Virus record (IMG/VR): IMGVR_UViG_3300042542_004481
Location: 1 to 64,000 of that record
Source of the DNA: an uncultured virus (IMG/VR IMGVR_UViG_3300042542_004481)
Taxonomy: Duplodnaviria; Heunggongvirae; Uroviricota; Caudoviricetes
Length of the DNA stretch: 64,000 nucleotides
Strand: one strand, 5' to 3'
A program made the translations under genes and the position numbers. The notes beneath the pieces are model-generated. The model was not told the origin of the DNA. It searched no databases and saw only the letters and a list, made by a program, of their open reading frames with translations. Shown piece after piece: positions 1,635 through 13,526 of the stretch (the first letter of the stretch is position 1; the number at the start of each line of letters is the position of its first letter).

Positions 1635-1910
1635 TTTTACTAATGCACCACAACTCACGTAGATATAAAGACTTCTTAGTAAAGATTCTCTTACCTGATA
1701 CTAAATTTATCTTAGTAATAATGCAGGGACTAAGATGTGAAACTACCTGATTAACATAGGTTCTTAGGAACTAACGATATAGTAGTGATATTGTATCATT
1801 AAAATGTTAGTCAGCTCCCAAGGGTGAGCAGTTGTAACAGCACATTAAAAACATAGATACTATGAGTGGAAGGTGAGGTATCGGTTACAACTGAGTGCAG
1901 AGGGGTAAAA
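1635..1910 (+). ncRNA. Twister ribozyme, type P1, with long P3 and P5 insertions
   Basis: P1 TTTTAC(1635-40)/GTAAAA(1905-10); L1 TAA and GAGGG; P2 TGCA/TGCA; L4 TCCCAAGG(1816-23) able to pair CCC with GGG (T1) and GG with CC1648-49 (T2); P5 CAGTTGTAAC/GTTACAACTG. Confidence 0.8.
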
Positions 1911-3767: not shown

Positions 3768-4052
3768 ATGGAGACTGCTCAAAAATCTTTTAAGCTTGCA
3801 ATCGTAGACGAAACATCATCATCTTTAATAGAAGCTCTTGGTATGTCCCAAGAAAGAGCTCAAGAGCTAGGTACTAAAATCAGAAAAGTTTTCGTAGTTT
3901 CAGAAAAGATTACTCAAGCCGCAGATATTGTGACAGCAGATTGTCGTCACGAAAACGAGTTATTGTTTTGCTACTACTACATAGCAAAGCTGCAAGATCA
4001 AATGAATAATCCTATTGAGGCTTTGTTGAAAAAGATAGGCAATAAAGAATAA
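3768..4052 (+). CDS. Hypothetical protein
   Basis: 94-aa ORF; its stop codon abuts the hammerhead. Confidence 0.7.
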   Translation: METAQKSFKLAIVDETSSSLIEALGMSQERAQELGTKIRKVFVVSEKITQAADIVTADCRHENELLFCYYYIAKLQDQMNNPIEALLKKIGNKE

Positions 4053-4112
4053 GTGTACTGATGAGTCTTTAAGAGACGAAACGCAAAGATTTTATATCTT
4101 TGCGTCTGCACT
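4052..4112 (+). ncRNA. Hammerhead ribozyme, type I
   Basis: Stem I AGTGTA/TGCACT, core CTGATGA(4058-64), stem II GTCT/AGAC, GAAA, stem III CGCAAAGAT/ATCTTTGCG, GUC cleavage triplet with the cut after C4106. Confidence 0.93.
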
Positions 4113-4411
4113 GCATGAAGTTAGCCGGGTACACGCCATGCGAGCGAACCCTGCCAGATCACCGGATCTGTGATGACAGCTACCAGGTAGCTAATTCTAA
4201 ACCGGTAACAATTTTAACGGATGCTCGCAGCAATACCCTCTATCTAAAAACGAGAAGTGGCATCCCGACTAGAACTAAAGGATACATCAGCAAACTCTAT
4301 CTATAAAACCGATAGGTGAACCGGGGAGACCTGCTGCAAAATAATTCGCGGTGGTACCGTATCCTGTAATGTTCTAAACCCGTCGCCTATGAAAGGGCGG
4401 CGGGTCTCCCC
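4113..4411 (+). ncRNA. Structured RNA region with two CAGCAA stem-loop units (candidate Ro/TROVE partner RNA or leader)
   Basis: Unit 1 GGATGC(4219)..CAGCAA..GCATCC(4265); unit 2 AGGATAC(4279)..CAGCAA..GTATCCT(4365); both contain CTCTATCTA; further hairpins at 4116-4198 and 4378-4405. Confidence 0.55.
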
Positions 4412-4448
4412 AAAAATTTAAACCTGACAAATTTAAACCTATCAACCT

Positions 4449-5834
4449 ATGAGCACTCTCGTGAACGCTATGCGCCAATATGATTCTACTACAGCCAACG
4501 GTGCTGTGACACACTCTACCTCACTCTCTCATCTTGTAGATATGTTCTTTCTAGCAGGTGCCAGCAGGAACATGTCTGAGATGGCCATCACTACGGTCTT
4601 CGAACGCGCTTATGCGGAAGATCCAAACATCGCAGCCAAGATTCTATTCTGGTCTCGTGATGCGCGTGGTGGTGCAGGTGAGCGCAGATTCTTCCACATC
4701 GTTATGAAGCATATCGCACAGACTCGTCCAGAGATCTTCGAGATGCTCATTATCCATACGCCAGAGTTTGGCTATTGGAAAGATGTATTCGCTATAGATA
4801 CGCCTAATCAGGATACCCTGAACTGGCTCTCTACGCAGCTAGAAGAATCTTCTAACCGTAATCTTCTTGCCAAATGGTTTCCACGTAAAGGGCCATGGTT
4901 TACAGCGATGCACAAGTATATGGGTATTACACCCAAAGACTTGCGCAAGAAGTTGGTAGCCATGACCAAGGTCGTAGAGACACAGATGTGCCAGAAGAAA
5001 TGGTCCGATGTAGAATATGACAAGGTTCCTTCGATTGCCATGAACCGCTACCGTAATGCTTTCTTTAAGCATGACCAAAAGCGTATGTCTTCTTTCATAG
5101 AAGATGTTAAGTCTGGCAAAGCGAAGATCAATGCCTCAGTATTGTTTCCTCACCAGTTGTATCAAGCAATTGCTCGAGGAGATAATGCCGATGCTGTAAC
5201 AGCACAGTGGAACGCCCTGCCGGATTACATGCAAGACAGCACAGAAAGGATTCTTCCTGTATGTGATGTCAGCGGTAGTATGAGCGGGCTTCCCATGGAC
5301 GTAAGTGTTTCTCTCGGGATCTATATCTCTGAGAGAAACAAAGGTATCTTCAAGGATGCCTTTATTACGTTTAGCCAATCCCCAGAGATGCACTACCTCA
5401 AGGGTAGTCTTCCTGAAAGGATGGTGCAGCTGAACAGCAGCGAGTGGGGTATGAATACCAACCTTGAATCTGTATTCAATCTTGTGCTTAACAGCGCTGT
5501 AAGAGAGAACATACCACAGACCGAGATGCCTACAAAGATCCTTATCATATCTGATATGGAGTTCGATGAGGCTTGCGGTACCGGAACAAACCTTGATGCA
5601 ATCAGATCTAAGTACCAGCAAGCTGGATACGAGATGCCTGAGATCATCTTCTGGAATGTGAACGGTAGATTGGGTAACTCTCCAGCGAATGTTAGCGACA
5701 AGGGGATCGGACTGGTATCTGGCTTCAGCCCATCGATTCTTAAATCTATCCTCAAGGGTAAGATTTATGGACCGAATCAGCTGATGTTGGATACGGTTAT
5801 GGTAGATCGCTACAAGGCTATACGCATTGACTAA
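4449..5834 (+). CDS. Ro60/TROVE-like helical domain plus vWA domain protein (DUF2828-type)
   Basis: RDARGGAGER, GYWKD, AKWFPR, MIDAS CDVSGSM, ISDMEFD, IIFWNV, LVSGFS motifs. Confidence 0.8.
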   Translation: MSTLVNAMRQYDSTTANGAVTHSTSLSHLVDMFFLAGASRNMSEMAITTVFERAYAEDPNIAAKILFWSRDARGGAGERRFFHIVMKHIAQTRPEIFEMLIIHTPEFGYWKDVFAIDTPNQDTLNWLSTQLEESSNRNLLAKWFPRKGPWFTAMHKYMGITPKDLRKKLVAMTKVVETQMCQKKWSDVEYDKVPSIAMNRYRNAFFKHDQKRMSSFIEDVKSGKAKINASVLFPHQLYQAIARGDNADAVTAQWNALPDYMQDSTERILPVCDVSGSMSGLPMDVSVSLGIYISERNKGIFKDAFITFSQSPEMHYLKGSLPERMVQLNSSEWGMNTNLESVFNLVLNSAVRENIPQTEMPTKILIISDMEFDEACGTGTNLDAIRSKYQQAGYEMPEIIFWNVNGRLGNSPANVSDKGIGLVSGFSPSILKSILKGKIYGPNQLMLDTVMVDRYKAIRID

Positions 5835-13420: not shown

Positions 13421-13526
13421 AGTCAGGTGGCGGAATTGGTAGACGCTATTACCCTAAATAGTTACTGCGATGAGTGGGGTAAACTCTGGGAGATGTAACA
13501 TACAGGTTCGAATCCTGTCCTGACTA
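13421..13526 (+). ncRNA. tRNA-like RNA with aberrant anticodon arm and enlarged variable arm
   Basis: Acceptor AGTCAGG/CCTGACT, D arm TGGCGGAATTGGTAGACGC, T arm ACAGGTTCGAATCCTGT. Confidence 0.75.

Follow-up and report, generated by a model that had tools for sequence, protein, structure and literature searches.

A phage RNA family probably derived from the twister ribozyme, with a two-arm insert in loop L4

In the twister ribozyme, P2 and P4 are the essential stems (PMC5408937), and P1 is phylogenetically conserved yet dispensable for cleavage (PMC5408937, PMC11662667). The T2 pseudoknot (PK1) consists of two pairs, which a dinucleotide on the 5' side of L2 forms with two bulged bases of L4, and it is the element most sensitive to mismatches (PMC11662667). 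It has been reported that a change of the general-acid adenine to U or C abolishes cleavage, that the base preceding the cut (N-1) is free, and that imperfections are tolerated in P1, P2 and P4 (PMC11662667). A search for further twister permutations gave no promising candidates (PMC10085705). These and the following statements on known ribozymes draw on portions of the papers cited, the twister features being those of PMC5408937, PMC6154101 and PMC11662667, with Roth et al. 2014 taken as described there. In this study, we analysed a window of 64,000 nucleotides (nt) of an uncultured Caudoviricetes virus, namely the first 64 kb of the 77,222-base IMG/VR virus record IMGVR_UViG_3300042542_004481, and we provide comparative evidence that an element at positions 1635-1910 of the plus strand is a genuine twister-type RNA, a new structural variant with predicted self-cleavage. 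The element is likely to be one copy of a widespread and uncatalogued phage RNA family that derives from the twister ribozyme and whose proposed cleavage would separate messages. From the fold and its conservation, which rest on the comparison of relatives, we infer cleavage and its effect on the messenger RNAs.

Relatives of the element and their catalytic core

Relatives were sought by three exact-word scans of viral contigs (IMG/VR). A 16-mer that spans L4 and the P4 3' strand was found at 44 loci, 34 of which have the four conserved blocks of the window at variable spacing, the remaining 10 having the word alone in common. Because the L4 word biases the sample towards L4, a 17-mer in block B (61 loci) and a 17-mer in block A (102 stretches) were chosen in addition, and a block-A match is present in 186 of 207 loci. 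Duplicates, chance matches, truncated copies and low scorers were filtered out (copies were kept at A >= 40, C >= 35 and D >= 26), leaving 72 distinct complete relatives, and an alignment of 73 rows and 598 columns (A2, built with MAFFT) served as the base for all conservation and pair counts below. In a separate count of the 186 loci, 76 distinct copies were readable at both strands of T1, the L4-L1 pseudoknot; the others were 56 duplicates, 22 with a weak block A, 15 without the L4 block, 9 without the 3' block and 8 off the motif pattern. In these RNAs of about 250-430 nt, the four conserved blocks are separated by variable spacers. No protein or nucleotide similarity was found between the flanks of the window's element and the 207 loci, and conservation is confined to the RNA itself.

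The core motifs lie where the original prediction had placed them, and its assignment to the twister class and to the plus strand, to which all features below belong, agrees with the comparative evidence from stems, T1 and key residues. P1 forms six Watson-Crick pairs in this copy (UUUUAC, 1635-1640, with GUAAAA, 1905-1910). Adjoining it, the 5' side of L1 (1641-1643) holds the predicted scissile bond U1641-A1642, with A1642 as presumed general acid, followed by A1643; the roles of L1 positions follow PMC5408937 and PMC11662667. Adenine is present at 1642 in 70 of 73 rows and at 1643 in 69, with U at N-1 in 64. On the 3' side of L1, GAGGG (1900-1904) comprises G1900 as presumed general base, A1901 as partner of A1820, and G1902-G1904 as one strand of T1; G1900 and A1901 are kept in all 73 rows.

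P2, predicted as TGCA (1644-1647) with TGCA (1896-1899), is present and extends to five pairs (UGCAC, 1644-1648, with GUGCA, 1895-1899), of which 97.0% of alignment cells are paired and all five show two-sided changes. It is followed by the 5' linker of L2 (CACAA, 1649-1653), which has 3-5 nt in the family and no P3, and the 3' side of L2 is the single base A1894 (A in 71/73 rows). P4 is a long-range stem (CUCAC, 1654-1658, with GUGAG, 1824-1828) with 97.2% of cells paired and, again, two-sided changes at five of five pairs; its last pair, 1658-1824, closes L4 and is CG in 49 rows, UA in 11, AU in 4, UG in 3, other in 4 and gapped in 2.

The L4 strand CUCCCAAGG occupies 1815-1823, and the L4 motif of the original prediction, TCCCAAGG (UCCCAAGG), is found at 1816-1823. 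C1817-C1819 pair with G1902-G1904 in T1, A1820 and A1821 correspond to the conserved L4 adenines of twister, and G1822 is the T2 base. U1816, C1817, C1818, A1820, A1821 and G1822 are identical in 73/73 rows. As many as 49 rows came from anchors outside L4 and L1, and the conservation of key residues is unchanged there (49/49 for the six L4 bases in rows fetched by non-L4 anchors).

In T1, also called PK2, 96.3% of cells are paired and one of the three pairs shows two-sided changes, the third pair being CG in 66 rows, AU in 2, UA in 2 and other in 3. Among the 76 distinct copies, CCC/GGG occurs in 65, CCU/AGG in 3 and CCA/UGG in 2, and 6 are uncompensated; one CCA/UGG copy (L072) was first tallied as TCC/TGG and re-registered by eye. 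T2 is a different matter. The likely T2 pair C1649-G1822 is CG in 70 and UG in 3 of 73 rows, and since it never changes on both sides it proves nothing. C1648-G1895 is CG in 61 rows, UA in 8, UG in 2 and other in 2, whereas C1648-G1823 is CG in 51, UG in 9, UA in 1 and other in 12. A second T2 pair is thus not favoured, because C1648 covaries with G1895 as an extension of P2, and as this fifth P2 pair uses C1648, only C1649-G1822 remains as a well-kept T2 pair, even if both CC/GG pairs could form in this copy. The twister-defining residues show the highest conservation in the alignment and N-1 is variable, as in twisters; judged by this pattern, the residues presumed to be catalytic fit a family under selection for catalysis.

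Several loci carry more than one copy, head to tail or closely spaced (L015, L014, L039, L010 and L211). In L015, two bases separate the GAGGG of one copy from the A-A-UGCAC of the next, and L211 has two matches 390 nt apart. Elements downstream of the copies in L089 and L076 keep the U-A-A-UGCAC start and differ in their bodies, the former being a short hairpin with its UUCCCAGU loop closed directly by a 4-bp stem, and the latter having a long, different insert. Phage twister-type RNAs may form a wider superfamily.

The insert in L4 and the overall fold

A two-arm insert of 156 nt (1659-1814) comes after the 5' strand of P4 and before the conserved U of L4, and from this position it follows that L4 is the single-stranded side of a three-way junction (P4, III and V) and not a hairpin loop. 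What had been predicted as a P3 of about 160 nt on the 5' side of L2 (1650-1810) is actually this insert inside L4, which spans 60-300 nt across the family. Its first arm (1659-1746) is composed of stem III (1659-1662/1743-1746), an internal loop (1663-1670/1739-1742), stem IV (1671-1679/1730-1738) and a variable tip (1680-1729). Two of the four pairs of stem III show two-sided changes, and its pair 1661-1744 is GC in 44 and AU in 29 of 73 rows. The III/IV internal loop is conserved, with A1740-A1742 kept in 73/73 rows and the positions A1663-G1670 in 55-71 of 73; neither a k-turn nor a loop-E motif seems to fit it, as judged by comparison with the motif consensus only. Stem IV has 84.8% of cells paired and includes a conserved U-U mismatch. 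In one relative (L003) the first arm is reduced to a capped stem III. The second arm is stem V (1747-1757/1804-1814) with a variable tip (1758-1803), and its eight conserved pairs have 96.9% of cells paired and two-sided changes at 8/8.

The 65-nt P5 hairpin (1829-1893) had been predicted correctly. Its stem (1829-1838/1884-1893) has 96.7% of cells paired and two-sided changes at 7/10 pairs, and the tip (1839-1883) is variable, with a P5 spacer of 28-97 nt among the relatives.

When all helices are taken together, 90.2% of cells are paired, compared with 83.7% in shuffled alignments, none of 500 shuffles being as high, and with 34-47% in slid controls; two-sided changes occur at 36 of 51 pairs. 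The minimum free energy (MFE) fold of the window's own copy recovers P2 (5/5 pairs), P4 (5/5), stem III (4/4), stem IV (8/9), stem V (11/11) and P5 (10/10). P1 is displaced by a competing pairing in this fold (0/6 pairs), and forcing it costs 2 kcal/mol. Across the family, 56.4% of P1 cells are paired in this register, and 26 of 73 rows have at least four contiguous pairs.

That standard models miss the element, as the original prediction expected, was borne out. Rfam 15 gave no twister match at gathering level, and at E <= 10 neither twister nor any other family matched 1560-1960 (401 nt); a search of the whole 77-kb record with RF03160 (twister-P1) scored 3 candidates and returned 0 matches. 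The inserts of 156 and 65 nt may put the element beyond what the Rfam twister models can align. A relaxed descriptor (TCCCAAG and, 12-200 nt further on, GAGGG; N-AA; a P2 of 4 bp; a P1 of 4 bp or more, G-U pairs permitted) has one match in the window and 2 in 200 dinucleotide shuffles (both strands). With this result and the 72 relatives, chance is rejected as the source of the motifs. No second copy was found in the 77-kb record with nhmmer.

Some arms of relatives carry tRNA-like stretches. The stem V tip in L014 and L036 has a tRNA T-arm-like sequence (GGGTTCAATTCCC), a tRNA-like segment lies within arm IV of L085, and an odd tRNA was called by ARAGORN near L085 and L154. Linkage to tRNA as a general feature was dropped, an ARAGORN tRNA being present in 3/73 loci, with short flanks.

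Is the RNA a self-cleaving twister?

Several observations weigh against a self-cleaving twister derivative. First, no Rfam twister model matches the element, and a large L4 insert is not among the twister variations in the portions of PMC5408937, PMC6154101 and PMC11662667 consulted, which describe P0, P3 and P5 as auxiliary arms, and literature searches brought up no account of the family, Roth et al. 2014 and the supplements lying outside this scope. Second, the catalytic step is read from conservation only, and the conservation figures are inflated, as exact-word anchors and block-score filters favour conserved copies; likewise, the shuffle control ignores relatedness among rows. Third, parts of the core depart from the consensus. 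P1 is weak, as seen from its 56% of paired cells, and L4 is closed by a covarying C-G pair, compared with the "essentially invariant G-C" of PMC5408937. With A at 1823 in 11/73 rows, T2 is left with one well-kept pair, and as T2 is the most sensitive element of twister, this brings real uncertainty about activity.

Fourth, some copies lack the adenines of the cleavage site. This applies to L030, L065, L127 and L189 (4/73 rows) and, outside the alignment, to L016, L051/L078, L093 and L094. In these copies U-A-A is replaced by a pyrimidine run able to pair with GAGGG, for example in L030, so that P2 could run unbroken through the would-be active site, and L4 and the arms are kept. They are probably non-cleaving, and by the rules of PMC11662667, as far as consulted, they should be inactive; they hint at a function beyond cutting.

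It could be proposed that the RNA is a twister-derived scaffold with a principal role other than self-cleavage, such as a folded 5' leader or spacer in which cleavage is weak, conditional or lost, possibly serving as the binding site of a phage or host protein or as an end-protecting structure. We regard this as rather unlikely. In its favour, the III/IV internal loop, the most conserved family-specific part, has no twister counterpart, the pyrimidine-run subgroup keeps the whole scaffold and L4 and loses U-A-A, P1 is weak across the family, and P0-type upstream hairpins lower cleavage in vitro in the CHiTA assay (PMC11662667). However, selection bears on the very residues that are of importance for twister catalysis only, the general-acid A being kept in 70/73 rows and the general-base G in 73/73, and T1 has compensated changes; in a pure scaffold, N-A-A opposite G-A-G-G-G would be superfluous.

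A related and still somewhat less probable reading makes the III/IV arm, with its near-invariant loop (A1663-G1670 opposite G1739-A1742), a sensor or docking module. The RNA would then be a naturally regulated twister, in which a phage or host factor switches cleavage and hence the separation and stability of early messages, and the subgroup without the catalytic A, with L1 closed into a helix, would be an offshoot that no longer cuts and has retained its binding role.

Very unlikely, in our view, is an unrelated phage RNA that resembles twister by convergence, either a new non-catalytic class or another ribozyme such as twister-sister. It is true that no Rfam family matches the element, that its size and multi-arm shape are unlike those of 50-100-nt twisters, and that twister-sister vaguely resembles twister in sequence and fold (PMC5408937). 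Yet every conserved residue of twister L1 and L4 is present in the right order and topology, and the L4-L1 pseudoknot covaries, whereas twister-sister is described without evidence of pseudoknots and with its cut on the opposite loop strand (PMC5408937); moreover, twister-sister was not matched at E <= 10. Finally, the architecture of the original prediction, a type-P1 twister with a 160-nt P3, a short and imperfect local P4 closing an L4 hairpin, a 65-nt P5 and a CC/GG T2, is almost certainly wrong in spite of its correctly placed motifs, its correct P5 and the two CC/GG pairs that can form here, as the local P4 has 47.0% of cells paired against 46.8% in shuffles (185/500 as good), its 5' strand belongs to stem V (two-sided changes 8/8) and its 3' strand to the long-range P4 (5/5), and the T2 cited as covaried support has one pair that never covaries and another in which C1648 goes with G1895 (UA in 8 rows) and not with G1823 (UA in 1, other in 12). 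A self-cleaving RNA derived from twister remains the reading that we prefer.

Locus, neighbouring RNAs and known ribozymes

The element lies within a 377-nt intergenic gap with small plus-strand open reading frames (ORFs) on either side (1334-1561 and 1939-2256), and the downstream ORF begins 28 nt past it. In the relatives, this distance is often 33-44 nt, and in 43 of 67 loci an ORF on the same strand begins no more than 150 nt downstream, compared with 20 control hits (denominator uncounted, at most 73). Directly upstream, a GC-rich hairpin (1596-1636; inner stem 1604-1613/1621-1630, outer stem 1596-1600/1632-1636) precedes UUUU and shares its final two bases with the 5' strand of P1. For the 50 nt in front of the cut site the MFE is -25.5 kcal/mol, against -10.5 kcal/mol in shuffles, and a hairpin of -10 kcal/mol or lower occurs upstream in 39 of 72 segments; in control segments, which lie another 80-130 nt upstream, the count is 16 of 72. 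Type-P1 twisters have an optional P0/L0 arm at this position (PMC11662667). The hairpin could act as an intrinsic terminator or as a protector of the 3' end; a scan for terminators gave no call here. Within the element, one sigma-70-like promoter site (1695-1722) was found against 3.6 expected in shuffles, which is not significant.

We propose that the element would be transcribed within the plus-strand early and replication gene block, and that the RNA would fold as its 3' strands emerge, with T1 and at least one T2 pair docking L4 on L1. G1900 and A1642 would then catalyse the attack of the U1641 2'-OH on the U1641-A1642 phosphate. The upstream RNA would be left with a 2',3'-cyclic phosphate a few bases past the stable hairpin at 1596-1636, and the downstream RNA would begin with a 5'-OH at a compact folded domain, with ORF 1939-2256 following after 28 nt. 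In this way the two cistrons would come apart, and both would have a protected end.

The plus-strand block (1-37 kb) encodes helicases, a primase, a Sak4-like annealing protein and a DNA polymerase, and the minus strand has three ORFs of 1871-3511 amino acids (aa), a layout that may be crAss-like. Four successive minus-strand ORFs (2654, 3511, 1871 and 726 aa; 37604-63909) have no PHROG match at E <= 1e-5. The proteins flanking the element (75, 105 and 429 aa) have no relatives in the viral contigs, and blastn of 1300-2400 against the GenBank phage collection gave no match. Among prokaryote genomes there were 8 matches, all on contigs of metagenome-assembled genomes, with the labels Pseudomonadota, Alphaproteobacteria, Bacteroidia, Saccharibacteria and unclassified; these are probably binned phage contigs, and in view of this and of the inconsistent labels we make no host call.

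A hammerhead candidate lies on the same strand 2.1 kb downstream of the twister-type RNA (4032-4111, core 4053-4111). It consists of CUGAUGAG, a short stem II, CGAAAC, a 7-bp stem III hairpin and GUC, after which comes a strand paired with the 5' end (stem I open). It scores 32.6 bits with the RAGATH-1-hammerhead model, below the gathering threshold of 56.3 (E 0.0012 on 481 nt), and 24.6 bits with Hammerhead_3. Ribozymes have been reported to cluster near each other and near phage genes (PMC10085705). The 396-nt plus-strand spacer 4053-4448 folds at -114.1 kcal/mol, compared with -92.3 kcal/mol in shuffles (z -4.53, 0/100 as good), and precedes ORF 4449-5834, a phrog_850 "RNA-binding protein" (Pfam DUF2828, DUF7788). 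Beyond the hammerhead candidate, this spacer may hold another structured RNA that partners the phrog_850 protein. Further downstream on the plus strand, 13421-13526 scores 39.7 bits with the Rfam tRNA model over 106 nt, which is long for a tRNA, and ARAGORN called no tRNA anywhere in the window; the segment may represent a tRNA-like RNA that contains an insert or whose anticodon arm is abnormal.

If the RNA cleaves, the twister active site tolerates a large multi-helix insert in the very loop that builds it, at a site of L4 variation absent from the consensus, from the Rfam models and from the consulted portions of the large activity survey PMC11662667. It would also mean that uncultured phages hold a sizeable uncatalogued set of ribozymes, with at least 76 distinct copies, and that this locus, with its hammerhead candidate 2.1 kb away, offers a testable case of ribozymes that cut phage operons into separately stabilised messages.

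The closest known system is twister type P1 (RF03160, with auxiliary P5 and an upstream P0-like hairpin), in which the elements follow in the same order as here, namely P1, L1, P2, a short L2, P4, L4 and an optional P5. Common to both are N-A-A opposite G-A-GGG in L1, the L4 strand U-CCC-AA-G, the three Watson-Crick L4-L1 pairs of T1 beside an A/A position, a predicted cut 5' of the conserved A after a variable N-1, and an optional hairpin just upstream. Unlike in twister, L4 is opened by the two-arm insert and becomes a junction strand instead of a terminal loop, it is closed by a covarying C-G where the closing G-C of twister is essentially invariant (PMC5408937), the fifth pair of P2 takes the first T2 position, and L2 shrinks to 3-5 nt in its 5' part and a single A in its 3' part, without P3. 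The family also goes undetected by every Rfam twister model, and its activity is here only predicted.

Twister-sister (Weinberg et al. 2015; RF02681), which occurs in bacteria and in phage-related DNA, is likewise a ribozyme built on a multi-helix junction, and some patches of its sequence are twister-like; in contrast to it, the present family has a covarying L4-L1 pseudoknot and conserves the twister-type N-A-A strand. Hammerheads in phage and bacterial operons (RAGATH-1 hammerhead, RF03152) differ in catalytic core and fold, and share with the proposed ribozyme the same likely use, that of a small nucleolytic RNA in a polycistronic transcript.

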